Assembly: GCF_003018115.1 (NCBI RefSeq) | Contig: NZ_CP027457.1 | Strand: one strand, 5' to 3' | Source of the DNA: Escherichia coli | Lineage (GTDB): Bacteria; Pseudomonadota; Gammaproteobacteria; Enterobacterales; Enterobacteriaceae | DNA: 64,000 nucleotides | Shown here: positions 32,753 to 50,870 of the stretch, one piece after another | Layout of the letters: every line of letters begins with the position of its first letter | Numbering within the stretch: position 1 is the stretch's first letter | Position numbers and translations under genes: made by a program | Notes under the pieces: generated by a model | What the model was told of the DNA's origin: nothing | Seen by the model: the letters and a program-made list of their open reading frames with translations, nothing else | Databases searched by the model: none

Positions 32753-32899
32753 GCCATCAGCCTTTTCTTTAAAGACATATTATCTTTGTATCATTTCTGA
32801 TAGTTAACATTACAAGATATAAGTAATGGACGCACTCCCAATTAGTCTATTTAAATCGCCACGAGTTTAACTGACAACCCATGATCAATTATGAATTGC

Positions 32900-34600
32900 A
32901 ACTATTTCTGTAGTCACTTTTGTGGGGACAGTCCACAAAACTGCCAACTTCCGCTTCTTGCTCTTAGCGGACATTAGCATAGGCTATTTACCATAACGCC
33001 TCATTACGCGCACCGCCCAGACTGACTCAGCGCGTTTCTGGCATATCCCCGGTAAAACAAGTAACAAACCACCCGAAAATGAACACCAGAAACGCGACTT
33101 AAGAATCTACCCTATGAATGGATATGCACTCAACCGAATCGATCTTGGTTTCAATCTTTTTTATCGGGATCAGGCTTCTTTTTAGGTAACTTCGGGGGCT
33201 TAACTTGCTGATGACTTTGCGTTCGGCGCGTAAGCCAGGGATGGTCAGCTTTAGGTTTAACATAGTATTTTGAGCGTAAATCAATACGGGCATTATCCAC
33301 TCGTTCATGGACACTCTTTTCATCATCCAGTGGTATAGGCTCCGGGCCATCAACATACTTTTCCCAGCCCAGCGCTTTCCCGTCATACAGAACGTTAATT
33401 TCACCGTCAAAGTTCTCGCATACAGTAACAACCGAATGCCTAAGTCGATATCCCCGGCCCTCACTGCGTACCTGAAACGCACTGCTTTTGTACTGGAAAG
33501 TGAGATTTTTAGACAGAACGCGCTTCGCCTGTAGGCTGAAGATATAACCCAGTTCCTCTTCAGAATGGTGCACATCAAGATGAGCATTATCAGTAGTACG
33601 AGGCGACGTAGCGAACCGGTTGTTATAGGCTTCAATAAAGGTCGGCAACCATGCATTTGCTGTTTCAATATCACTGATATTCTGAAGCCGCATTTCTTTG
33701 ACCAGCCTGTCCTGTAGTGTCTGATTGGCGCGCTCTACCCGCCCTTTTGCCTGCGGGCTGTTGGCATGGATTGGCTCGATGCCCAGTGTCTTTATCGCAC
33801 GAGTGAACTGGGTCAGCTCACCTTCCCGCTCTGGGTTATTTACCCTGAATATACTGTGTCTATCAGAGTAGAGAGCGAGCGGTACGCCATGATCATTAAG
33901 GTAACCCCGGAGGGTTTCCATGTAAGCCCGGGTTGTTTCAGCAGGCACAAAACGCAACGCCATCAACGCACTGGTGGCATCATCAATGAAAACGATCAGT
34001 GTACATCTGGGGCCTCGATTTTCAAACCAGTCATGAGGTGAGCCATCAATCTGGATCAGTTCACCGTAAGATGGTCGTCGCATGCGGCGTTGATATATAC
34101 GGGCAATTTTACGACGGCGTTCACGCCATAACCCCTCTTCTATCATCCACTTTCTGAGAGTTTCAACGGATAAAGATAAACCGTGTATCTCGCGCAATTT
34201 TTCGCACGCAAACGTAGGTCCAAAATCAGCGTAACGGCCTTTGAGGAGTGAAATTACTGTTGCTCTGAATTCAGTAGAAAAGGAATTATTAGGACGCTTT
34301 CCACGTCGGTGGGAAACCAGACCAGAAGGCCCTTCATTTCTATACCGTTGCACCAGACGTTTAACCTGCCGAATAGAAATGCCAATGCGTGCCGCAGCTT
34401 GTTCCTGAATAATCTGAAGTCGGTGGAGTTCCTTATGACTCATCGTAACAGTCTCTTTGATCATGAAAAATCCCCCAGAGAATTGTCTGGGGACATTTTA
34501 GAATGGTTCAAAGGGGACATTACAGCTTGGTGTTAACAATAGCCTGCTTCTCCGTGCCTTTCGGCACGTAAGAGGCTAACCTACATGTGTCTAGCATGAA
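32900..34600 (-). mobile_element. Insertion sequence carrying a single DDE transposase (IS481/ISNCY-type); ends not resolved
   Basis: Single 437-aa transposase ORF; terminal inverted repeats could not be assigned by eye. Confidence 0.55.
33151..34464 (-). CDS. DDE transposase with N-terminal HTH and integrase-core (rve) catalytic domain
   Basis: 437 aa; D (IQIDGS), D (YSDRHS), E (GRVERANQ) triad spacing typical of rve. Confidence 0.85.
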   Translation of the reverse strand: MIKETVTMSHKELHRLQIIQEQAAARIGISIRQVKRLVQRYRNEGPSGLVSHRRGKRPNNSFSTEFRATVISLLKGRYADFGPTFACEKLREIHGLSLSVETLRKWMIEEGLWRERRRKIARIYQRRMRRPSYGELIQIDGSPHDWFENRGPRCTLIVFIDDATSALMALRFVPAETTRAYMETLRGYLNDHGVPLALYSDRHSIFRVNNPEREGELTQFTRAIKTLGIEPIHANSPQAKGRVERANQTLQDRLVKEMRLQNISDIETANAWLPTFIEAYNNRFATSPRTTDNAHLDVHHSEEELGYIFSLQAKRVLSKNLTFQYKSSAFQVRSEGRGYRLRHSVVTVCENFDGEINVLYDGKALGWEKYVDGPEPIPLDDEKSVHERVDNARIDLRSKYYVKPKADHPWLTRRTQSHQQVKPPKLPKKKPDPDKKD

Positions 34601-34978: not shown

Positions 34979-35652
34979 TATTCCTCCTACAATCAATGTG
35001 CAATTACATTTAAACACACCTCAATTTGGCCGGACATATAAATATCTAAACCAGAAAAAATCACTTACATAGCGTTACAAACTCTTTAGTCTAAAGGTTC
35101 ATCGTAAAACATTCCCCATACTTATCAGTCCGTTCCGCGCCAGGTAGCTCATTGCCTTATCTGGCAACCTGTAATCAGGTTTCCGCTTTTTCAGTTGGCT
35201 GGTCGTTTAACCGACATAGTTAATCCATTAATCTAGTTGCCGGATGTTGGTGGATTTTCGCGTTTTAGTTGTTCATAAAAGTGCACAGCTTTAACCAGTT
35301 CTTCTGATGTAACTGGGACTGGTGAGGCAGTGAATAAGGCCTGAATTTGATAGTTCGGCCTGTCGTTACAATCCTCTTTTTTCGGTACATATTTCCAGTC
35401 ACCAGACCACTACTTCCCCTGAAAGTCCGTAACGCCTTTTTTCACGTAGCGATATCGCCATGCCACTGGTTTTGCTTGCCCCGCCGTTTCATGCCCTTCC
35501 TGATAATTAATCTCGCTCATTCATCGCCCCACTCATCACAATATGCTTCGACCGGAGTTTTTCCCGCTTCATAGTCATCACGCTAGGATTCGACATCAGC
35601 AGCACTTCCACCGCGTAACTCACCATAGTCCATTAATAGTTCATCCCGCTCT

Positions 35653-35660
35653 TCAAAACT
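35653..35660. repeat. 8-bp target site duplication TCAAAACT (left copy) of IS66-family element
   Basis: Identical 8-mer immediately outside both inverted repeats. Confidence 0.7.
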
Positions 35661-35741
35661 GTAAGCGTCGTCTCAGCACCGTCTGGCAGATCCTGAAATT
35701 CCTGAGAGAATAGTGGACACCAAATATGGTGGACGCAATCC

Positions 35742-36146
35742 ATGAAATCATTAACCGCAGTGCGTAAAAAAAGCCCTAATTATCCCGTTGAGTTCAAAAT
35801 CAAAATGGTTGAACTCTCGCATCGACCAGAGATCTCCGTAGCGCAACTCGCTCGTGAGCATGGGATCAACGATAATTTGCTGTTCAAGTGGCGCCAGTAC
35901 TGGCGCGAAGGAAAACTACGTCCTCCTTCAACAACAGAAAACAACGTGCCTGAGCTGCTCCCGATAACACTTGATGCCGAAGATGTTGTCCCTACAACCT
36001 CCCCCCGGTCACAACCTGTAGCTGCTGCGACACCTGAATCACTCAATATCAGCTGTGAAGTGACGTTCCGGCACGGATCACTCCGTCTGAATGGTGCCAT
36101 CAGCGAAAATATCCTGAACCTGCTGATACGGGAGCTCAAACGTTGA
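35742..36146 (+). CDS. IS66-family accessory protein TnpA (orf1)
   Basis: 134 aa, HTH-like N-terminus, first ORF of element. Confidence 0.85.
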   Translation: MKSLTAVRKKSPNYPVEFKIKMVELSHRPEISVAQLAREHGINDNLLFKWRQYWREGKLRPPSTTENNVPELLPITLDAEDVVPTTSPRSQPVAAATPESLNISCEVTFRHGSLRLNGAISENILNLLIRELKR

Positions 36147-36490
36147 TCCCATTACCATCAGGGACAAAGATCTGGCTGGTCGCTGGCATCACCGATATGA
36201 GAAACGGCTTCAACGGCCTGGCGGCAAAGGTGCAGACGACGCTGAAAGACGATCCGATGTCAGGTCACGTTTTTATCTTCCGTGGGCGTAATGGCAGTCA
36301 GGTAAAGCTCCTCTGGTCTACCGGCGATGGACTGTGTCTGCTGACCAAACGGCTGGAGCGCGGCCGCTTCGCCTGGCCGTCAGCCCGGGATGGCAAAGTG
36401 TTCCTCACACCGGCACAGCTGGCGATGCTGCTGGAAGGTATCGACTGGCGGCAGCCTAAAAGACTGCTTACGTCCCTGACTATGTTGTAA
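36143..36490 (+). CDS. IS66-family TnpB (orf2)
   Basis: 115 aa, 4-nt overlap with tnpA. Confidence 0.85.
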   Translation: MIPLPSGTKIWLVAGITDMRNGFNGLAAKVQTTLKDDPMSGHVFIFRGRNGSQVKLLWSTGDGLCLLTKRLERGRFAWPSARDGKVFLTPAQLAMLLEGIDWRQPKRLLTSLTML

Positions 36491-36538
36491 GCCTCTTTAT
36501 CCTGGTCGACGCTGAATGAGCCTGGTAATATACCCGGT

Positions 36539-38074
36539 ATGAGCAGCTCACTTCCTGACGATATCAATGCACTGAAACGTCTCCTTGCCGAACAGGAGGC
36601 GCTGAACCGTGCCCTGCAGGAAAAGCTGAACGAGCGTGAACGCGAAATAGACCATCTGCAGGCACAGCTGGATAAGCTGCGCCGGATGAACTTCGGCAGC
36701 CGCTCGGAAAAAGTCTCCCGTCGTATCGCACAGATGGAAGCTGACCTGAAGGCACTTCAGAAAGAAAGTGATACCCTTACCGGTCGGGTTGACGACCCGG
36801 CCGTGCAGCGCCCGCTGCGTCAAACCCGCACCCGCAAACCGTTCCCCGAATCACTCCCCCGCGATGAAAAACGGCTGCTGCCGGCAGCGTCATGCTGCCC
36901 GGAATGTGGAGGCTCGCTGAGCTATCTGGGTGAGGATGCCGCCGAACAGCTGGAGCTGATGCGCAGCGCCTTCCGGGTTATCCGGACTGTACGTGAAAAG
37001 CATGCCTGTACTCAGTGCGATGCCATCGTGCAGGCCCCCGCGCCTTCACGGCCCATCGAGCGGGGTATCGCAGGACCGGGGCTGCTGGCCCGCGTGCTGA
37101 TCTCAAAGTATGCAGAGCACACCCCGCTGTACCGCCAGTCTGAAATGTACGGCCGCCAGGGCGTGGAGCTGAGTCGTTCACTGCTGTCGGGCTGGGTGGA
37201 TGCATGCTGCCGGCTACTGTCACCGCTGGAAGAAGCGCTTCAGGACTATGTGCTGACTGACGGTAAGCTCCATGCTGATGACACGCCTGTCCCGGTGCTG
37301 TTGCCAGGCAATAAGAAAACGAAGACCGGGCGGTTATGGACCTACGTTCGTGACGACCGTAACGCCGGGTCAACGCTGGCGCCGGCGGTGTGGTTCGCTT
37401 ACAGCCCGGACAGAAAAGGCATCCATCCGCAGACCCATCTTGCGGGGTTCAGTGGTGTACTGCAGGCGGATGCATACGCCGGGTTCAACGAGCTGTACCG
37501 GGATGGCCGGATAACGGAAGCCGCCTGTTGGGCTCACGCCCGCCGTAAAATCCACGATGTGCACGTTCGCACCCCGTCAGCCCTGACGGAGGAAGCGCTG
37601 AAACGGATCGGCGAACTGTACGCCATCGAGGCAGAGATAAGGGGAATGACGGCGGAGCAGCGCCTTGCCGAACGTCAGTTGAAAACGAAACCGCTGCTGA
37701 AATCCCTGGAAAGCTGGCTGCGTGAAAAGATGAAAACCCTGTCGCGACACTCAGAACTGGCGAAAGCGTTCGCATACGCCCTGAACCAGTGGCCGGCGCT
37801 GACGTACTATGCAGATGATGGCTGGGCTGAGGCGGACAATAACATCGCTGAAAATGCGTTGCGGATGGTCAGTCTGGGCCGCAAAAACTACCTGTTCTTC
37901 GGTTCGGATCATGGAGGAGAGCGGGGAGCGCTGCTGTACAGCCTGATCGGGACGTGCAAACTGAACGGAGTGGAGCCAGAAAGCTACCTCCGCTATGTCC
38001 TTGACGTCATAGCCGACTGGCCGATAAACCGGGTCGGCGAACTGCTCCCCCTGGCGCGTAGCACTGCCGACTGA
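36539..38074 (+). CDS. IS66-family transposase TnpC (orf3)
   Basis: 511 aa, N-terminal leucine zipper, Cys-x2-C zinc motif, DDE core. Confidence 0.9.
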
Positions 38075-38115
38075 ATAACACATCCCCGTCAATACGGTTC
38101 TTGCTGCACGCTTAC

Positions 38116-38593: not shown

Positions 38594-38950
38594 TTAAAAA
38601 ATCAGAACGCCGTGCGGCCTCAACACCCGAAAGGCTTCTTTAAATCTCTGTCGCGAATCATCACGCCAGGCATCTTTATTCAGCCGTCCATATTTCTTTC
38701 CCATCCAGGCGTTATCACCAACACTCTCAAGATGCGGAGGGTCTAATACAACCATCGAAAAAGATGCGTCTGCAAATGATAATGCACGAAAATCTGCGAT
38801 AATGTCAGGGCTGATAATCAAGCGTCTCCCATTGCGTAATGTGTATCCTTCTTTTCTGATATCGCTGAATATCGCCCGTTCGTCAGACTTATCGAACCAG
38901 AACATGCGGCTGCCACAGCACATATCAAGAATGGTTGCCGGTGCACTCAC
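38594..38950 (-). pseudogene. Truncated SAM-dependent methyltransferase-like ORF (motif I then DPPH)
   Basis: 118 aa is too short for a full Rossmann MTase; in-frame TAA followed by about 32 further sense codons. Confidence 0.4.
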
Positions 38951-39369
38951 TGCGCCACGTCCTGAAAATTACCCTGATAGAAAGCCAGTATGCGCTGCAT
39001 AACTTCGCTCTTCCGGCACTCGCGACAGATTATGTTTAGGCGACTGTCGTAGCGACGTATTTCTCCGTCAGGTGATGACCAGATAAGGTCCGGATCAACC
39101 ACAGCAGGTTTCTTCACCTTTGCCCTCGAGAGTTTTTTGCGGGCGTTTTGCCAGTCCTTACGCGCCTGTTCAGAGGGGAATAACCCGTAGCCGGAGTTGT
39201 ATACATCGCCACTGGCTACCAGCTCTCTGGCAAGAACGCTCATCAGATATCTAGTCGCACCTGTTTTAGCTTCCAGTTGCCGTAACGTCTCACGGCCGCT
39301 CTGGCGCACGAGTTCCACCACCTGCCATTTAATTTTTTCCCGCTCTTCTTGTGTAAAAACTTTTGCCAC
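38947..39369 (-). CDS. Hypothetical 140-aa prophage early-operon protein
   Basis: Translationally coupled (4-nt overlap) to downstream MTase-like ORF; no family recognised. Confidence 0.45.
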   Translation of the reverse strand: MAKVFTQEEREKIKWQVVELVRQSGRETLRQLEAKTGATRYLMSVLARELVASGDVYNSGYGLFPSEQARKDWQNARKKLSRAKVKKPAVVDPDLIWSSPDGEIRRYDSRLNIICRECRKSEVMQRILAFYQGNFQDVAQ

Positions 39370-39409: not shown

Positions 39410-40429
39410 TTATCCTCTGAAACCAGGCGGAATTTCTGTATCCGGTTCAGAAATATGATTAACACAACGCTGTACAGGTGAACGTCCCAGGCGGATGACC
39501 AGTTCGTCCCATTTTTCGCGGAGCTTTGACGGGCTCATGATGTTTTTTACCCAGAATGGATCTCGCTGAACCCGACCAAACATTTCGCAAATTTGTCTGT
39601 GGCTTCTGCCATCCAGCATCCGCATTGTGCGCACGTCATTGGCCCAGGCAGTCCAGTTAGGCTCTTTTGGTCGCATGATCTCGCCATCATCACTGGCTGC
39701 CTGTTCGTAGAGACCCACGATCCGCCCCCAGATCCACTGCGCACACGCCAAATCCTCCCTGCTACCCCACTGGCGTTTTTTCGCACTAAACACAACCGCG
39801 TCGGAGTTCCGGGTTAAAAAATCCTGTTCAGTCGTCTGCGGGTCCGGTTGCGAAGCTTCCGGACGAAAAGTGTTTTTATTCTCTGTAGTAATCTCTGTTG
39901 TATTCTCTGTAAGATCATCAGGCCATTTTGACCCGATGACATTGGGTCGTTTTGAACCAATGGAGCGTTTCATTTTGACCTCTTCCATCGTGTCATTTTG
40001 ACCTGATGGAGCGGCGCATTTTGAACCGATGGATTCGCTCAATTTGCCACCATCTAAAAGCTCGCTCCCATAGTTGATCGTGTAGAAATTGGTCATATCG
40101 CGCTTTGATTTATTGAGCTTTTCACAACGCAAAAGCCCCAGCGTTTTCAGACTTGCAAACGCGCGCTTTAACGTTGACTCTGACCAGAATGGGAACTGTT
40201 CCAGCCATTGTTCCGTTGTGTTATAAATCCAGCGAACACCATCACATTCCATGCCGGAGTTGGTATCTCTCAACCAGTAGTGCAGTTGTTGCAAAACAAT
40301 GGCTTCGTTTAAGCCAATTTTCATTGCCAGCTGCGTGTTTATAACCAGTGGACGTTCAGCAAAAAGAAGGCTCATAATTCCATCCAGCTTTTTGTTGGTA
40401 TTGCTGTCGATACGCAAGTTTGAAAGCAA
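39410..40429 (-). CDS. Replication initiator / replisome organiser (lambda O-like), start uncertain
   Basis: N-terminal HTH-like domain; gene contains five direct iteron repeats encoding (S/V)IGSK repeats; sits in early-right operon after the cro-like dicC. Confidence 0.65.
   Translation of the reverse strand: MLSNLRIDSNTNKKLDGIMSLLFAERPLVINTQLAMKIGLNEAIVLQQLHYWLRDTNSGMECDGVRWIYNTTEQWLEQFPFWSESTLKRAFASLKTLGLLRCEKLNKSKRDMTNFYTINYGSELLDGGKLSESIGSKCAAPSGQNDTMEEVKMKRSIGSKRPNVIGSKWPDDLTENTTEITTENKNTFRPEASQPDPQTTEQDFLTRNSDAVVFSAKKRQWGSREDLACAQWIWGRIVGLYEQAASDDGEIMRPKEPNWTAWANDVRTMRMLDGRSHRQICEMFGRVQRDPFWVKNIMSPSKLREKWDELVIRLGRSPVQRCVNHISEPDTEIPPGFRG
39920..40035. repeat. Candidate replication origin iterons: five direct repeats of about 19 bp (consensus CATTTTGAMCNGATGG) at about 23-bp spacing, AT-rich region adjacent
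   Basis: Repeats read directly in sequence inside the O-like gene, as for lambda ori. Confidence 0.6.
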
Positions 40430-40877
40430 TTGCTTTTTCTATAAGTTCGTCAGTTTCACGATCCACTACGGCAGGATCAGCAAAAAGCAGTCCGGACTCC
40501 ACCACATCGCCATATTCTTTGTTTAACCCGGCGATCATGCACGTGATGCTTTTTCCGTCAGTAATTTCACGATACAACCTGAAATCATTAATCCGGATAG
40601 CCTCCATAATTGCAGGCACTAGCGCCGTGAACTTTTCACGCTTATCCCTGGTGTCGATAGCCTTCCAGCGTTCAAATATCTTCACTCGATTAACGCCAAG
40701 CGCTCGCTGATCAATCGCGCCACCTTCATATGTGACACGCTGAACATCGATGTTCGGGCGCTCTTTCAAAGCCCAGAATGCTTCAGTGATTAATATCGTC
40801 GCCTGCTCCTGTGTCATTCCTGGTCGACATATCCAGGCATCCAGAGCCTCACGAGCCTGTTCAGGAGTGATTTTCAT
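40356..40877 (-). CDS. Hypothetical 173-aa protein directly downstream of dicC (possibly YdaT-like)
   Basis: Position equivalent to ydaT/cII in lambdoid early-right operons; family call from memory only. Confidence 0.45.
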   Translation of the reverse strand: MKITPEQAREALDAWICRPGMTQEQATILITEAFWALKERPNIDVQRVTYEGGAIDQRALGVNRVKIFERWKAIDTRDKREKFTALVPAIMEAIRINDFRLYREITDGKSITCMIAGLNKEYGDVVESGLLFADPAVVDRETDELIEKAIAFKLAYRQQYQQKAGWNYEPSFC

Positions 40878-41091
40878 TGTTCAACCGCCCCGCCCGCTTC
40901 GTCTTACGATATTCATCATAAACTTTGGGATCATACTGAAGCTCCCCGCCAGATGCCTCCTGTAGACGCATCGCGCGACCTTCGGGAACTAAATCCCCTT
41001 TCCAGCTATAAAGCGAAGCCAAACGAATACCTGCTGCTTGTGCAAGTTTTGTTTTTGAACCGAAATACAAAAGAGCGTCAGTTTTAAGCAT
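40861..41091 (-). CDS. dicC: Cro-like repressor DicC
   Basis: 76 aa MLKTDALLYFGSKTKLAQAAGIRLASLYSW. Confidence 0.9.
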   Translation of the reverse strand: MLKTDALLYFGSKTKLAQAAGIRLASLYSWKGDLVPEGRAMRLQEASGGELQYDPKVYDEYRKTKRAGRLNNENHS

Positions 41092-41106
41092 TTAAAACAC
41101 CTTTAT

Positions 41107-41126
41107 TGTTAGTCATAACTAACAAG
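41107..41126. promoter_or_regulatory. Candidate DicA/DicC operator (imperfect palindrome TGTTAGTCATAACTAACA) in the dicC-dicA divergent promoter region
   Basis: Near-palindrome; related motif recurs at 41653-41670 and at the dicA start. Confidence 0.45.
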
Positions 41127-41174
41127 ATAGATGTTAACAAAAACATAGTCAATACGATTTAGCATTAGCTAACT

Positions 41175-41582
41175 ATGGAAACAAAAAATTTAACTATCGG
41201 CGAACGCATCAGGTATCGTCGGAAAAACCTCAAACACACCCAAAGGTCTCTTGCTAAAGCCCTGAAAATCTCCCATGTGTCTGTATCACAATGGGAACGG
41301 GGTGATAGTGAACCTACAGGGAAGAACCTTTTTGCCCTCAGCAAAGTATTGCAATGCTCACCAACATGGATTCTATTTGGCGATGAAGACAAGCAACCAA
41401 CACCACCTGTTGAGAAGCCAGTTGCCTTATCCCCCAAAGAACTAGAGCTCCTTGAGCTGTTTAATGCACTGCCAGAATCAGAACAGGATACCCAGCTCGC
41501 CGAAATGCGAGCTCGAGTAAAAAACTTCAATAAACTCTTTGAAGAATTACTAAAAGCCCGTCAGCGGACAAATAAAAGATAA
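41175..41582 (+). CDS. dicA: Repressor DicA (HTH_XRE, cI-like)
   Basis: 135 aa METKNLTIGERIRYRRKNLKHTQRSLAKALKISHVSVSQWERGD. Confidence 0.95.
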   Translation: METKNLTIGERIRYRRKNLKHTQRSLAKALKISHVSVSQWERGDSEPTGKNLFALSKVLQCSPTWILFGDEDKQPTPPVEKPVALSPKELELLELFNALPESEQDTQLAEMRARVKNFNKLFEELLKARQRTNKR

Positions 41583-43318: not shown

Positions 43319-45790
43319 ATGAGTAAAGTCTTTATTTGCGCCGCTATTCCTGACGAACTGGCAACAAGGGAAGAAGGCGCTGTGGCTGTAGCCACAGCCA
43401 TTGAAGCTGGCGACGAACGCCGTGCTCGAGCAAAATTTCACTGGCAATTCCTGGAACATTATCCGGCTGCTCAGGACTGCGCTTATAAATTTATTGTCTG
43501 CGAGGATAAACCTGGCATACCCCGCCCTGCCCTCGATTCATGGGATGCTGAATATATGCAGGAAAACCGCTGGGATGAGGAGTCTGCTTCTTTTGTCCCG
43601 GTTGAGACTGAATCCGATCCGATGAACGTCACTTTTGACAAGCTGGCCCCTGAAGTACAGAACGCTGTCATGGTTAAGTTCGACACATGTGAAAACATCA
43701 CCGTTGATATGGTTATTAGCGCACAGGAATTGTTGCAGGAAGACATGGCAACATTCGACGGACATATCGTTGAAGCGTTGATGAAAATGCCAGAAGTTAA
43801 CGCCATGTATCCGGAGCTTAAGTTGCACGCCATTGGGTGGGTTAAGCATAAATGTATTCCTGGTGCTAAATGGCCCGAAATTCAGGCAGAGATGCGCATC
43901 TGGAAAAAACGTCGCGAAGGTGAACGCAAGGAAACCGGAAAATACACGTCTGTTGTTGATCTCGCCCGCGCCAGAGCCAATCAACAGTACACTGAAAATT
44001 CAACAGGAAAAATCAGCCCGGTCATTGCTGCCATTCATCGCGAATACAAGCAGACATGGAAAACACTGGATGACGAACTGGCCTACGCTCTCTGGCCTAG
44101 TGATGTGGATGCCGGAAACATTGACGGCAGCATCCATCGCTGGGCAAAAAAAGAAGTTATCGACAACGACCGCGAAGACTGGAAGCGTATCTCGGCATCA
44201 ATGCGCAAACAGCCTGATGCCCTTCGCTACGACCGCCAAACTATTTTTGGCCTTGTCCGTGAGCGTCCGATCGACATTCACAAAGATCCCGTAGCACTGA
44301 ACAAATATATCTGCGAATACCTGACGACAAAGGGCGTGTTTGAGAATGAAGAAACAGACCTGGGCACTGTTGATGTTCTCCAGTCATCAGAAACACAAAC
44401 TGATGCAGTGGAAACTGAGGTATCTGATATCCCAAAAAATGAAACCGCGCCGGAAGCTGAACCATCTGTAGAGCGTGAGGGGCCGTTCTATTTCCTCTTC
44501 GCAGATAAGGACGGAGAAAAATACGGTCGCGCAAACAAACTCTCTGGTCTGGATAAGGCACTGGCTGCTGGCGCCACTGAAATCACAAAAGAAGAATATT
44601 TTGCCCGAAAAAATGGCACATACACGGGCTTACCGCAAAATGTAGATACCGCTGAAGATTCAGAACAACCAGAGCCGATAAAAGTTACCGCTGACGAAGT
44701 AAACAAAATTATGCAGGCAGCCAATATCAGCCAGCCTGACGCCGATAAGTTGCTTGCTGCATCACGTGGTGAATTTGTTGAAGGGATTAGTGACCCGAAT
44801 GATCCGAAATGGGTTAAGGGGCTCCAGACCCGCGATTCTGTGAACCAGAACCAGCATGAATCGGAACGGAACTACCAAAAAGCGGAACAAAACAGTCCAA
44901 ATGCGTTACAAAACGAGCCAGAAACGAAACAGCCTGAACCAGTAGCGCAACAGGAAGTGGAAAAAGTCTGCACCGCCTGCGGTCAGACCGGCGGCGGCAA
45001 CTGCCCTGATTGTGGCGCGGTGATGGGCGACGCAACATACCAAGAAACATTCGATGAAGAGTATCAGGTTGAAGTTCAGGAAGATGATCCGGAGGAAATG
45101 GAAGGCGCTGAACATCCACACAAGGAGAACACTGGCGGCAATCAGCATCACAATAGCGATAATGAAACTGGCGAGACGGCAGATCACCCAATTAAGGTGA
45201 ACGGTCATCACGAAATCACATCCACCAGCAGGACGTGTGACCATCTAATGATCGACCTTGAAACCATGGGAAAAAATCCTGATGCCCCGATCATCTCAAT
45301 AGGTGCAATATTTTTCGATCCGCAAACCGGAGATATGGGACCGGAATTTAGTAAGACTATCGATCTGGAAACTGCTGGCGGAGTCATTGATCGGGACACC
45401 ATTAAATGGTGGCTTAAGCAATCACGCGAAGCGCAATCTGCCATTATGACCGATGAAATCCCGTTAGATGATGCACTGTTACAATTGCGAGAATTTATCG
45501 ACGAAAACTCCGGTGAATTTTTTGTTCAGGTTTGGGGAAATGGAGCCAACTTCGACAACACGATTTTGCGCCGTTCATACGAACGGCAGGGGATCCCCTG
45601 CCCGTGGCGTTACTACAACGATCGCGATGTACGCACAATCGTTGAGCTGGGGAAAGCCATAGACTTCGATGCCAGAACGGCTATTCCATTCGAAGGTGAG
45701 CGCCATAATGCACTTGATGACGCCCGTTACCAGGCAAAATACGTTTCAGTTATCTGGCAAAAACTGATCCCGAGTCAGGCTGATTCTTAA
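43319..45790 (+). CDS. ydfE: Full-length YdfE-type protein: large N-terminal region, acidic linker, Cys4 zinc ribbon, C-terminal DEDDh 3'-5' exonuclease domain
   Basis: ORF track 43283-45790; start chosen at MSKVFICAAIPDEL after GAGG; Exo I DLE, Exo II GNGANFD, Exo III HNALDDARY motifs in the last ~190 aa. Confidence 0.7.
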   Translation: MSKVFICAAIPDELATREEGAVAVATAIEAGDERRARAKFHWQFLEHYPAAQDCAYKFIVCEDKPGIPRPALDSWDAEYMQENRWDEESASFVPVETESDPMNVTFDKLAPEVQNAVMVKFDTCENITVDMVISAQELLQEDMATFDGHIVEALMKMPEVNAMYPELKLHAIGWVKHKCIPGAKWPEIQAEMRIWKKRREGERKETGKYTSVVDLARARANQQYTENSTGKISPVIAAIHREYKQTWKTLDDELAYALWPSDVDAGNIDGSIHRWAKKEVIDNDREDWKRISASMRKQPDALRYDRQTIFGLVRERPIDIHKDPVALNKYICEYLTTKGVFENEETDLGTVDVLQSSETQTDAVETEVSDIPKNETAPEAEPSVEREGPFYFLFADKDGEKYGRANKLSGLDKALAAGATEITKEEYFARKNGTYTGLPQNVDTAEDSEQPEPIKVTADEVNKIMQAANISQPDADKLLAASRGEFVEGISDPNDPKWVKGLQTRDSVNQNQHESERNYQKAEQNSPNALQNEPETKQPEPVAQQEVEKVCTACGQTGGGNCPDCGAVMGDATYQETFDEEYQVEVQEDDPEEMEGAEHPHKENTGGNQHHNSDNETGETADHPIKVNGHHEITSTSRTCDHLMIDLETMGKNPDAPIISIGAIFFDPQTGDMGPEFSKTIDLETAGGVIDRDTIKWWLKQSREAQSAIMTDEIPLDDALLQLREFIDENSGEFFVQVWGNGANFDNTILRRSYERQGIPCPWRYYNDRDVRTIVELGKAIDFDARTAIPFEGERHNALDDARYQAKYVSVIWQKLIPSQADS

Positions 45791-45862
45791 TGTTCAACTG
45801 TCGCCGGTTGTGACTGGTATTCTGCAACCGGCGCTCGTCTGATGTAAGAGATAAAGAAATCG

Positions 45863-46114
45863 ATGAGCGAAGTAATCATGATTGTCTCTCCCGGCAAATG
45901 GGTATCCGAAGAGCAGTTAATTGCGCTGAAAGGAATAAAAAAAGGTACGTTAAAAAAGGCCCGGGAAAAATCGTTTATGGAAGGAAGGGAATATAAGCAT
46001 GTCGCTCATGACGGTATGCCATGGGATAACAGTCCATGCTTTTACAACCTGGAAGAAATTGATCGCTGGATTGAGCGCCAGGCATCAGCGAGACCAAGAC
46101 GTCATCTTACTTGA
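45863..46114 (+). CDS. Excisionase-like protein
   Basis: 83 aa small basic protein immediately upstream of integrase. Confidence 0.55.
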   Translation: MSEVIMIVSPGKWVSEEQLIALKGIKKGTLKKAREKSFMEGREYKHVAHDGMPWDNSPCFYNLEEIDRWIERQASARPRRHLT

Positions 46115-46148
46115 CTAAAAGCCACACTAACTAATGAGAGAAGTTGAA

Positions 46149-47429
46149 ATGAAATATCCGACAGGCGTGGAAAACCATGGAGGGAAATTACGTATCTGGT
46201 TTGTTTATAAAGACGTAAGAGTCAGGGAAAATCTGGGGGTTCCTGACACAGCAAAAAACAGGCGCGTTGCAGGTGAACTACGCTCCTCTGTTTGTTACGC
46301 AATAAAAACTGGTGTTTTCGACTATGCAAAACAGTTTCCCTCCTCACGCAATCTGGAAAAATTTGGTGAGGCCCGACAAGATTTAACCATAAAAGAACTG
46401 GCTGAAAAATTTCTGGCACTGAAAGAAACTGAAGTCGCCAAAACATCACTCAACACATACCGTGCCGTCATCAAAAATATCCTGAGCATAATCGGTGAAA
46501 AAAATCTTGCCTCATCGATTAATAAAGAAAAATTACTGGAGGTTCGTAAAGAGTTACTGACTGGATACCAGATCCCCAAAAGTAACTATATTGTTACACA
46601 ACCAGGGAGATCGGCTGTAACTGTAAATAATTACATGACAAATCTTAACGCCGTGTTCCAGTTTGGTGTTGATAACGGTTACCTGGCAGATAATCCGTTT
46701 AAGGGGATCTCGCCATTAAAGGAATCAAGAACCATTCCGGATCCTCTTTCGCGGGAAGAATTTATCCGTCTTATCGATGCGTGCAGAAATCAGCAAGCAA
46801 AAAATTTATGGTGTGTTTCTGTTTATACTGGAGTTCGCCCTGGTGAGCTGTGTGCACTTGGATGGGAGGACATAGATCTGAAAAATGGAACAATGATGAT
46901 CAGGAGAAATTTAGCAAAAGACCGTTTCACGGTACCAAAAACACAGGCGGGAACCAATCGGGTCATTCATCTTATTAAGCCAGCAATCGACGCTCTCCGG
47001 AGTCAGATGACATTAACGAGACTGAGCAAAGAGCATATCATTGATGTTCACCTCAGAGAGTATGGCAGAACAGAAAAACAAAAATGCACCTTTGTTTTTC
47101 AACCTGAAGTGTCAGCGAGAGTAAAAAATTATGGTGACCATTTTACCGTTGACTCAATAAGGCAGATGTGGGACGCAGCGATAAAACGTGCCGGACTCCG
47201 CCATCGAAAATCATATCAGTCGAGACATACTTATGCCTGCTGGTCGCTGACAGCTGGTGCTAACCCGGCATTTATAGCAAACCAGATGGGCCATGCAGAT
47301 GCGCAAATGGTATTTCAGGTATACGGAAAATGGATGTCTGAAAACAATAATGCACAGGTAGCTTTGTTAAATACACAGTTAAGCGAGTTTGCCCCAACCA
47401 TGCCCCATAACGAAGCAATGAAAAATTAA
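46149..47429 (+). CDS. intQ: Tyrosine recombinase / phage integrase (full-length)
   Basis: ORF track 46134-47429; C-terminal catalytic region with R...HxxR...Y pattern (ending HTYACW). Confidence 0.85.
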   Translation: MKYPTGVENHGGKLRIWFVYKDVRVRENLGVPDTAKNRRVAGELRSSVCYAIKTGVFDYAKQFPSSRNLEKFGEARQDLTIKELAEKFLALKETEVAKTSLNTYRAVIKNILSIIGEKNLASSINKEKLLEVRKELLTGYQIPKSNYIVTQPGRSAVTVNNYMTNLNAVFQFGVDNGYLADNPFKGISPLKESRTIPDPLSREEFIRLIDACRNQQAKNLWCVSVYTGVRPGELCALGWEDIDLKNGTMMIRRNLAKDRFTVPKTQAGTNRVIHLIKPAIDALRSQMTLTRLSKEHIIDVHLREYGRTEKQKCTFVFQPEVSARVKNYGDHFTVDSIRQMWDAAIKRAGLRHRKSYQSRHTYACWSLTAGANPAFIANQMGHADAQMVFQVYGKWMSENNNAQVALLNTQLSEFAPTMPHNEAMKN

Positions 47430-50394: not shown

Positions 50395-50528
50395 CTTTGT
50401 CACTTATTGACATCATGTATAGTTATAGGGCCACATAATATCATCAATATAAACACCCTCCTGGTACGTTTTGCGTTCGCAGTGGATGGTGTAGAATCAC
50501 CTTTAATCATTCATACAGGGAATGAATT

Positions 50529-50870
50529 ATGAAAATCACTCTCAGCAAACGAATCGGCCTGCTCGCTTTTCTGCTGCCTTGCGCACTGGCATTGAGCACA
50601 ACTGTTCATGCCGAAACTAACAAACTGGTGATTGAGTCTGGCGACAGTGCACAAAGCCGCCAGCACGCCGCTATGGAAAAAGAGCAATGGAATGACACGC
50701 GCAATCTGCGTCAGAAAGTGAATAAACGCACTGAAAAAGAGTGGGATAAAGCCGACGCCGCTTTTGATAACCGCGATAAATGTGAGCAAAGCGCCAACAT
50801 CAATGCCTACTGGGAGCCCAATACTTTGCGCTGCCTGGACCGTCGAACTGGCCGCGTTATTACCCCCTAA
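50529..50870 (+). CDS. ynfB: Secreted protein YnfB
   Basis: 113 aa with signal peptide. Confidence 0.85.

Follow-up and report, generated by a model that had tools for sequence, protein, structure and literature searches.

The 173-codon gene that follows dicC in the stretch of Escherichia coli DNA analysed here (64,000 nucleotides of contig NZ_CP027457.1, henceforth the window) is a real prophage gene that has been catalogued before, namely ydfX of E. coli K-12 in its full-length form. We consider it very probable that its product is a YdaT-family transcription factor which, in lambdoid prophages of the Qin/Rac type, takes by the mechanism proposed here the functional place of lambda CII without being its homologue. 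Under this proposal, ydaT would be expressed from the dicC operon, in which it is second, and the N-terminal helix-turn-helix of its product (Arg70-Trp71) would bind an 18-bp imperfect inverted repeat, TGATY-N6/7-GTTCA. From one such candidate site at the start codon of ydaT (box 1), the protein may activate a promoter on the opposite strand, with a -10 element 20 nt away, whose transcript would run antisense through dicC into dicA, as from PRE. A further candidate (box 2), 20 nt upstream of a -10-like element before xis and int, may act in the manner of lambda PI. Soon after infection or derepression, the net outcome would be a bias towards synthesis of the repressor and expression of the recombinase. 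Family membership is documented below by sequence and predicted fold, alongside the conservation of gene order, of the site and of its spacing. For the window protein itself, we infer binding to boxes 1 and 2, activation and oligomeric state by analogy with its characterised relatives.

The ydaT gene and its neighbourhood

The list of open reading frames in the window contains, at 40356..40877, a frame of 173 amino acids with an ATG start (MKITPEQAREALDAW...), just as a preliminary description of this DNA had claimed; the strand, absent from that description, is minus. Its presentation there as an unknown gene cannot be sustained. RefSeq lists the identical protein as WP_000705358.1, "toxin YdaT family protein", phage records name the same gene cII, and YdfX has been called 'the Qin prophage YdaT homolog' in the literature (PMC11879457). 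Inducible relatives with this gene include the phages PhiR42_1 (100% identity) and HannyBb (97.7%).

Close relatives from IMG/VR, gathered by a subfamily-alignment search, cover 95-100% identity only, a range usable for assessing selection and not for footprinting. All 173 codons are kept in 78 of 80 of these relatives. Third codon positions account for 48 of the 73 variable sites, and synonymous and nonsynonymous changes stand at 45:29 in the ydaT frame, versus 11:63 and 10:64 when the two alternative frames are read. The ORF is a real gene under purifying selection, and not a chance ORF.

The same gene is found in the Qin prophage of K-12. YdfX (b1568) is 100% identical to the window protein over codons 1-93, and ydfX likewise overlaps dicC by 17 nt and is preceded by identical DNA, which includes box 1. 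Homology ends after codon 93, however, and K-12 ydfX is a stump of 96 codons, whereas the window has 173 intact codons followed by the replication module. The K-12 gene ydfW shows no relationship to the 3' half of ydaT. The window gene is the intact ancestor of the ydfX fragment, which explains the former nature of YdfX, a "protein of unknown function".

Upstream of ydaT on the same strand lies dicC (40861..41091, minus), a 76-aa ORF recognised by its annotation, by NCBIfam DicC (1.8e-47) and by Pfam P22_Cro (1.7e-11) as the cro-like first gene of a rightward-type early operon. The reported overlap of ydaT with its stop codon was accurate and amounts to 17 nt (40861-40877), which makes translational coupling of the two genes probable. 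The CI-like repressor gene dicA (41175..41582, plus; annotation and NCBIfam DicA, 3e-70) is divergent, and a PR-like sigma-70 promoter candidate for dicC, ydaT and the replication genes, drawn from a consensus scan only, lies at 41124..41152 (minus; TTGACT-17-TATCTT, 9/12). In the window, ydaT stands second, after the cro-like gene, divergent from the CI-like repressor and upstream of the replication genes. This order – repressor, then divergently the cro-like gene, ydaT and replication genes – is kept in 8 distant homologues (27-43% identity), bearing out the earlier placement of the gene in the cII/ydaT slot.

The O-like replication initiation gene downstream (39410..40375, minus; PHROG 391, 1.1e-91) had been credited with a 74-nt overlap with ydaT and with an uncertain start. 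An overlap of 74 nt is correct for the longest possible ORF, which opens at TTG 40429 and encodes 339 aa. RefSeq (WP_000054512.1) starts the gene at ATG 40375, giving 321 aa and an overlap of 20 nt. Homologues down to 68% identity all start at the equivalent MSLL..., with conservation beginning at that Met, and a GGATGG lies 5-10 nt upstream of ATG 40375, while TTG 40429 has no comparable Shine-Dalgarno sequence. Given the agreement of RefSeq, homologue N-termini and GGATGG, the start is not really in doubt: the gene most likely begins at ATG 40375, and the true overlap with ydaT is therefore that of about 20 nt.

Family membership, predicted fold and the toxin label

The assignment of the protein to the YdaT family had initially been a guess from a motif, and is now upheld by Pfam, PHROG, a profile match to solved structures and gene order. 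Sequence comparison thus supports its placement among these CII-like regulators, which help the phage choose dormancy. The Pfam model PF06254 (YdaT_toxin) matches residues 59-131 above its cut-off (24.2 bits against a gathering score of 21; E 4.5e-5), and the search, at E <= 0.01, returned no match to an unrelated family. PHROG 163, 'CII-like transcriptional activator', matches residues 1-155 (E 5.5e-40); an NCBIfam search with the 173-aa protein gave no matching model. A profile was needed to reach the solved structures, because single-sequence phmmer comparison with the PDB entries 8BT1 and 3C4R yielded marginal matches only (E 0.063 and 0.083; about 0.08 for CP-933P YdaT). Built from 10 homologues, with CP-933P-like and Rac sequences left out, this profile matched the two YdaT structures over its positions 2-130 (8BT1, 2.2e-17; 3C4R, 6.3e-17). 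The BLASTP alignment with Rac YdaT covers 29 residues only. Word-indexed searches for homologues recovered chiefly fragments and frameshift chimeras; an exhaustive HMMER search found 63 representatives only, and the YdaT subfamily is therefore narrow.

The predicted structure, which represents the monomer only, has the all-alpha, POU-like helix-turn-helix domain at its N-terminus and the long C-terminal helix of the family, with C-terminal helices placed at residues 111-130 and 135-164. Its putative recognition helix spans approximately residues 57-73, where N63, R70 and W71 are invariant; in the homologue alignments, R70 and W71 fall opposite R57 and W58 of Rac YdaT. Double mutation of Rac YdaT (H56A R57A) abolishes DNA binding (PMC11879457), and Arg60 is a DNA-contacting residue of the solved YdaT (PMC9986795).

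CP-933P YdaT (PDB 8BT1; close relative 3C4R) belongs to the same Pfam family, occupies the same slot after a cro-like gene and has its site at the cro/ydaT junction. It carries one 29-residue tetramerisation helix, whereas the C-terminus of the window protein is longer by about 30 residues and is predicted to form a helical hairpin without counterpart in either Rac or CP-933P YdaT. Because of this difference, a tetramer is not to be assumed. Rac YdaT (b1358) has 140 aa and approximately 20% overall identity to the window protein, with which it shares the recognition-helix motif N..(I/L)(F/Y).RW and an LxPAI motif; for Rac YdaT, host targets (rcsA) and toxicity have been demonstrated.

Such toxicity, and the names in use, could point to a different role, namely that of the toxin in a YdaS/YdaT-type toxin-antitoxin pair, in which DicC would act as antitoxin and the function would be to arrest growth, not to control transcription. 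Both Pfam and RefSeq name the family 'toxin YdaT', DicC has a sub-threshold match to YdaS_toxin, and overexpression of Rac YdaT leads to filamentation and cell death (PMC11879457). However, PMC9986795 traces the toxin name to a prediction that experiments failed to confirm, CP-933P YdaT is a non-toxic transcription activator (PMC8630535), and the toxicity of Rac YdaT is attributed, in the study that reports it, to DNA binding, including activation of rcsA. The predicted fold of the 173-aa protein is, moreover, that of a helix-turn-helix DNA-binding domain, and the cII slot of the immunity region is occupied by ydaT in every relative examined. We regard a toxin function as highly improbable. 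The "toxin" of the family name is in all likelihood a historical mislabel, and should not be taken literally for YdaT.

As a transcription factor, the protein invites comparison with lambda CII, which occupies the same early-right slot, likewise contains a helix-turn-helix and follows the logic proposed here, with an antisense repressor promoter and an int promoter. A Pfam scan at E <= 0.01 found YdaT_toxin only, and no Phage_CII match. The sites also differ, in that the lambda CII target is a direct repeat, TTGC-N6-TTGC, at -35, whereas the candidate site in the window has inverted arms and a centre that lies about 10 bp farther upstream. The lambda-type repeat occurs three times in the window, as often as chance would allow, with no occurrence between 40800 and 41100. 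Window YdaT is a functional analogue of lambda CII and not its homologue; in the earlier reading of the gene as cII or YdaT, the YdaT family and the slot stand, while homology to lambda CII does not.

A candidate YdaT site at the ydaT start codon

Rac and CP-933P YdaT are known to bind TTGATT-N6-AATCAA, and DNase I footprints of both lie on this DNA repeat at the start codon. Activation of the repressor-directed promoter has been reported for CP-933P YdaT (PMC8630535) and for Rac YdaT, in the latter case 29-fold and dependent on the box (PMC11879457). The corresponding candidate in the window, box 1, was located by consensus and register as an 18-bp imperfect inverted repeat at 40867..40884 (minus strand, TTGAAC-AATGAA-AATCAC). 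The ATG of ydaT lies inside its spacer, and the same bases encode the C-terminus of DicC (L N N E N H). It matches the footprinted repeat at 9 of 12 positions, with arms that are not symmetric (TTGAAC/AATCAC, compared with TTGATT/AATCAA in CP-933P). Its register is that of the CP-933P box and of the Rac box, ATGATT-CATGAA-AATCAA, where the ATG takes the same position in the spacer.

At 3 mismatches, the consensus box occurs 29 times in the 64 kb versus 36 times expected, and is thus at chance level rather than enriched. A match at 50522-50539 was set aside as fortuitous; it lies where a host signal-peptide gene, likewise opening with MKIT, starts, and a match to the wider architecture at 32871-32888 is within chance expectation. 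Across 55 unique family sequences, a TGA/TCA core (spacer N8 or N10) is conserved around the ATG, in upstream flanks that are otherwise unalignable. The Ile codon over the box is ATC in 54 of these 55, and codon 4 begins with A always, whatever the amino acid. As the right arm overlaps conserved codons (M-K-I), the conservation of box 1 could partly reflect constraint on the protein. In the phi80-type branch, the architecture has no obvious counterpart: the CII genes of mEp237 and HK639, whose products are 35-37% identical to Rac YdaT, lack a box at their annotated start codons.

Exactly 20 nt after box 1, towards dicA, the -10-like hexamer TACGAT (40905..40910, plus) provides a PRE-like candidate, which would put the box centre near -41.5; dicA is the presumed target of this antisense promoter. 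Rac has a corresponding antisense hexamer, TATGAT, also at 20 nt. In the family at large, 30 of 31 independent flank families carry TAnnnT at 20 or 21 nt beyond the box; the background is 0.76 per offset. The proposed -10-like elements are weaker consensus matches (4/6), and a sigma-70 consensus scan of the plus strand from 40880 to 41175 gave no promoter at threshold.

Published promoter placements in the relatives vary. The activated promoter of Rac is given as approximately 190 bp from the box (PMC11879457), and PMC9986795 describes the CP-933P box as covering the transcription start; neither placement fits a simple -41.5 geometry.

Since box 1 covers the ribosome-binding region and ATG of ydaT itself, YdaT might be thought to act there mainly by repression or autoregulation, or by blocking PR-type transcription and expression of the replication genes, rather than as an activator of lysogeny promoters. 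A structural paper does term YdaT a 'repressor' and finds about 95 bp bound at higher concentration, while additional binding of Rac YdaT occurs at the operators between racR and ydaS, which overlap PydaST. Binding to the Rac box nonetheless leaves ydaT expression unchanged and strongly raises that of racR (PMC11879457). Furthermore, an antisense -10-like element at so fixed a distance is what an activator site, and not a roadblock, predicts, and a second box before xis-int has no obvious repressor logic. A mainly repressive role appears improbable.

The repeat might equally be sought in the mRNA, as a hairpin controlling translation initiation of ydaT, with the targets of the protein lying elsewhere; the UUGAUU...AAUCAA arms of many family members could indeed pair, leaving the AUG in a 6-nt loop. 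At box 1 of the window, pairing is possible at 3 of 6 arm positions only, and the local RNA folds no more favourably than shuffled sequence (z = -0.93), for which reason the hairpin was rejected for this locus. The footprints mentioned above place the protein on the DNA repeat in both Rac and CP-933P, and the same arms recur upstream of xis, away from any start codon. We give this explanation hardly any credence, and take box 1 to be a putative DNA site for a YdaT activator.

A second candidate site before xis and int

Box 2 (45780..45797; plus strand, CTGATT-CTTAAT-GTTCAA) has the arms of box 1 at 11 of 12 positions and is located at the exonuclease gene's 3' end, 66 nt ahead of the xis ATG. 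An extended -10-like element, TGgTATTCT (45815..45823, plus), with its hexamer 20 nt after the box in the direction of xis-int, is a PI-like candidate. The presumed targets, xis and int (45863..47429), comprise an excisionase-like gene (45863..46114, plus; Pfam DUF1233, 1.6e-31) and a tyrosine integrase gene (46134..47429, plus; Pfam Arm-DNA-bind_2 and Phage_integrase).

Boxes before xis/int also occur in Citrobacter, Raoultella and K-12 Rac prophages, where only the box can be aligned, and each of these three resembles the start-codon box of its own prophage. The distance from box to hexamer is 20 nt in Citrobacter (TATAGT), 20 nt in Raoultella (TATTAT) and 21 nt in Rac (TAACAT), the K-12 Rac architecture lying at NC_000913.3 1413503-1413520. 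On this basis we suggest tentatively, and with slightly less than even confidence, that YdaT regulators control a small conserved lysogeny regulon, defined by an 18-bp box, a distance of 20-21 nt and TAnnnT, and arranged both antisense at the ydaT ATG and before xis-int.

An int-proximal YdaT site is not described in the YdaT papers cited here, and this site and the conserved promoter geometry constitute modest new leads. The family comparison offers a testable model, in which the spacing between box and -10 is fixed at the repressor-directed promoter and before xis-int, perhaps including those of Rac. Were it confirmed, both halves of the lambda analogy, PRE and PI, would be in place for a regulator family of many enterobacterial prophages, and the coupling of derepression and excision in cryptic prophages would be easier to explain. 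Loss of RacR induces xisR and intR approximately 100-fold, an effect in which the literature sees no functional dependence on YdaT; were the proposed regulon real, the Rac site would tie YdaT directly to this induction. Likewise, a TACAAT on the other side of the Rac box might tie YdaT to the ralA antitoxin RNA.

In lambda, the PI transcript does not include xis; box 2 of the window, by contrast, lies upstream of that gene. A promoter in this position would, unlike lambda PI, make Xis along with Int.

Identity of the 173-codon gene

The ORF at 40356..40877 is, as described, an ATG-initiated frame of 173 codons, on a strand (minus) which the preliminary description had omitted, and its first 17 nt overlap the 3' end of the 76-codon dicC (40861..41091, minus strand; NCBIfam DicC 1.8e-47, Pfam P22_Cro), from which dicA (41175..41582; 3e-70) diverges. 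It is a real gene. Among 80 close IMG/VR relatives (L014-L093; 34 distinct ORF sequences), 78 have all 173 codons intact and two are cut short by a stop at codon 34. Third codon positions account for 48 of the 73 variable sites, and synonymous to nonsynonymous single-site changes stand at 45:29 in the ydaT frame, as opposed to 11:63 and 10:64 in the remaining frames.

The proposed membership of the YdaT family was put to the test. The Pfam YdaT_toxin model scores 24.2 bits against a gathering score of 21, its match limited to residues 59-131, and PHROG 163, "CII-like transcriptional activator", matches residues 1-155 (5.5e-40). Single-sequence comparisons with solved structures were marginal (3C4R, E 0.063; 8BT1, E 0.083), and BLASTP against Rac YdaT aligned 29 residues. 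Full-length homologues that bridge the gap (27-45% identity) came from an exhaustive HMMER search; ten of them, with Rac and CP-933P-like sequences left out, were built into a profile that recovered 8BT1 at 2.2e-17 and 3C4R at 6.3e-17. Family-invariant columns include N63, R70, W71 and L86/P88-A89-I90. R70-W71 align with R57-W58 of Rac YdaT, which loses DNA binding in an H56A R57A double mutant (PMC11879457), and the corresponding Arg is the sole fully conserved recognition-helix residue (PMC11879457; PMC9986795). The gene order, a repressor divergent from a cro-like gene, ydaT and replication genes, is kept in eight distant homologues. The placing of the gene in the cII/ydaT slot is confirmed, and its membership of the YdaT family is established. 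A lambda CII homologue is ruled out, the 173-aa protein having no Pfam match to the lambda CII family and the dicC/ydaT junction no TTGC-N6-TTGC repeat.

The gene is not the unknown it had been taken for. RefSeq names its product (WP_000705358.1) "toxin YdaT family protein", and phage records use "cII" for the identical protein (PhiR42_1) and "CII-like transcriptional activator" for one of 97.7% identity (HannyBb). Many complete E. coli genomes match the surrounding 2.4 kb at 100% identity, and at least 80% of this stretch is present in 415 genomes. Codons 1-93 of the K-12 counterpart, ydfX (b1568), are 100% identical, its overlap with dicC is the same, and homology ends at codon 94, so that what K-12 has as a stump is intact in the window. 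In a 2024 DicC preprint ydfX still figures as a gene with no known function. The ORF as described is confirmed, and the YdaT interpretation is supported, but for a gene already known and named the finding is an ordinary one. The reading of the product as a toxin comes from the database name and is contradicted by experiments on relatives.

The protein exceeds Rac and CP-933P YdaT in length by some 30 residues; in place of their single long tetramerisation helix, its structural model predicts two helices (111-130 and 135-164). An R-E-x-D-E motif in this C-terminal helix region is conserved and common to part of the family. Model confidence is low for the last eight residues, which are encoded where ydaT and the replication gene overlap by 20 nt. 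PPompW and Stx2a-converting phages (H19-H29) have only residues 1-161 in common with it (89% identity), which points to a mosaic or recombination joint near the ydaT 3' end, at the replication-module overlap.

A candidate site over the start codon

DNase I footprints of CP-933P and Rac YdaT delineated a TTGATT-N6-AATCAA inverted repeat at the ydaS/ydaT junction (PMC9986795; PMC11879457), in Rac ATGATT-CATGAA-AATCAA with the ydaT ATG within the spacer (PMC11879457), and bound YdaT activates transcription that runs towards the repressor gene (PMC11879457; PMC8630535). A candidate box at 40867-40884 (minus strand, TTGAAC-AATGAA-AATCAC) holds the ATG in the same register. As a 9/12 match it is, taken alone, at chance level, with 29 such sites in the 64 kb. 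Across 55 distinct family sequences TGA(T/A)..-ATG-...ATCA is kept, whereas the 20 nt upstream cannot be aligned. Isoleucine 3 is encoded by ATC in 54 of them, and the first base of codon 4 is A without exception, be it a codon for T, K, S or N. Such preferences indicate constraint at the DNA level. In the window the last DicC residues are encoded by the same 18 bp, so that one stretch would serve two reading frames and a candidate binding site. An mRNA hairpin at the ydaT AUG, in place of a DNA site, is not supported at this locus, where pairing is possible at only three of six arm positions and the local fold has z = -0.93.

On the strand opposite to ydaT, reading towards the repressor gene, the 31 independent flank families (L004-L012, L094-L172) include 30 with a TAnnnT hexamer that begins 20 or 21 nt past the box, against a background of 0.76 families per offset; the hexamer is TACGAT (40905-40910) in the window and TATGAT in Rac. 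With this spacing the box would be centred near -41.5, a typical position for class II activators. The arrangement fits a promoter directly beside the box, akin to lambda PRE, the CII-activated promoter for the repressor, and the comparison suggests a repressor-directed promoter abutting the box throughout the family. YdaT bound here would activate a PRE-like promoter towards dicA. A pure repressor or roadblock at the box is possible, but leaves unexplained both the fixed -10 spacing and a second, int-proximal box. Agreement with published descriptions is not full, since the activated Rac promoter was placed ~190 bp from the box (PMC11879457) and the CP-933P box was described as covering the transcription start (PMC9986795); the published constructs hold both elements.

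No YdaT box occurs at the annotated starts of the phi80-type 'CII-like' proteins of mEp237 (L177 33274-33813) and HK639 (L178 37349-37894), which are 35-37% identical to Rac YdaT over ~90 residues; either these starts are wrong or the branch is organised differently. In mEp237 a box-plus-TAnnnT match lies 48 nt within the ORF (33322-33339).

A box-like sequence at 50522-50539 (ATGAAT-TATGAA-AATCAC) was judged a chance match; it lies where a host signal-peptide gene beside speG begins, likewise with MKIT, and shows that Met-Lys-Ile codons alone can give the right arm. Between dicA and dicC, an 18-nt inverted repeat (41096-41135; 83% complementary, core TTGTTAGT...ACTAACAA) is probably a DicA/DicC operator, and a TTAGC...GCTAA element lies closer to dicA.

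A second candidate site upstream of xis-int

One further copy of the arms of the start-codon box is present in the window, a candidate box at 45780-45797 (plus strand, CTGATT-CTTAAT-GTTCAA), at the 3' end of the exonuclease gene and 66 nt ahead of a DUF1233 excisionase gene, itself followed by the integrase gene. By simple arithmetic, ~0.03 occurrences of such an 11-base arm pattern are expected by chance in the window. An extended -10-like TGgTATTCT (45815-45823) follows after 20 nt, towards xis-int. Equivalent arrangements precede xis in a Citrobacter prophage whose YdaT is 42% identical (CTGATC-ATTAAT-GTTCAA, 20 nt, TATAGT), a different, lambda-type excisionase in a Raoultella prophage (CTGATC-ATTCTT-GTTCAA, 20 nt, TATTAT) and xisR in K-12 Rac (CTGATT-ATTAAT-AATCAA, 21 nt, TAACAT; L175 2004-2021, NC_000913.3 1413503-1413520). 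The box is all that can be aligned among the four regions, and each resembles the start-codon box of its own prophage (GTTCAA-type arms in the Qin-like subfamily, AATCAA in Rac). The site looks like a counterpart of lambda PI, the CII-activated int promoter, and YdaT bound there may drive PI-like transcription of xis-int; unlike that of PI, the transcript would include xis. From these comparisons we infer that a two-promoter geometry may be conserved, which would extend the established CII analogy and be no surprise.

The near-consensus Rac box lies between xisR and rcbA/ralA; on the strand opposite to that of the xisR-directed TAACAT, TACAAT follows at 20 nt, and the ralA antitoxin RNA has its annotated 5' end 10 nt past this hexamer. 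We found no mention of an int-proximal YdaT site, that of Rac included, in the YdaT literature examined, and the Rac box may be previously undescribed. A paper from this literature reports that RacR depletion raises xisR/intR ~100-fold and deems this induction functionally independent of YdaT. In locus L007, from a metagenomic prophage whose YdaT is 31% identical, a near-perfect box (667-684, TTGATT-ACTTAT-TATCAA, 11/12 to consensus) occupies another left-operon position, just upstream of the exonuclease gene start.

Replication-gene start and rightward operon

The 74-nt overlap of ydaT with the O-like replication gene holds for the longest ORF in that frame, from TTG 40429, and not for the likely start, ATG 40375, with which the overlap is 20 nt. 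The start, earlier considered uncertain, is largely resolved in favour of the ATG, which is the RefSeq start, has GGATGG 5-10 nt upstream (TTG 40429 has no such element) and has an equivalent MSLL start in all homologues down to 68% identity (Citrobacter, Salmonella), conservation running from that Met onward. In the 321-aa form, the match to the PHROG O-like profile begins at residue 17.

Next come a DUF977/Ren-like exclusion protein (38947-39369; PHROG 142, 1.6e-47) and a small SAM-dependent methyltransferase (38594-38950), with no lambda P-like or DnaC-like helicase loader between the O-like gene and these two. Downstream of the methyltransferase gene lies an IS66-family element (~35500-38100) with a 511-aa transposase ORF (36539..38074), upstream of which the matching RefSeq genome has tnpB. 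This insertion interrupts the rest of the rightward operon, so that the prophage is probably defective.
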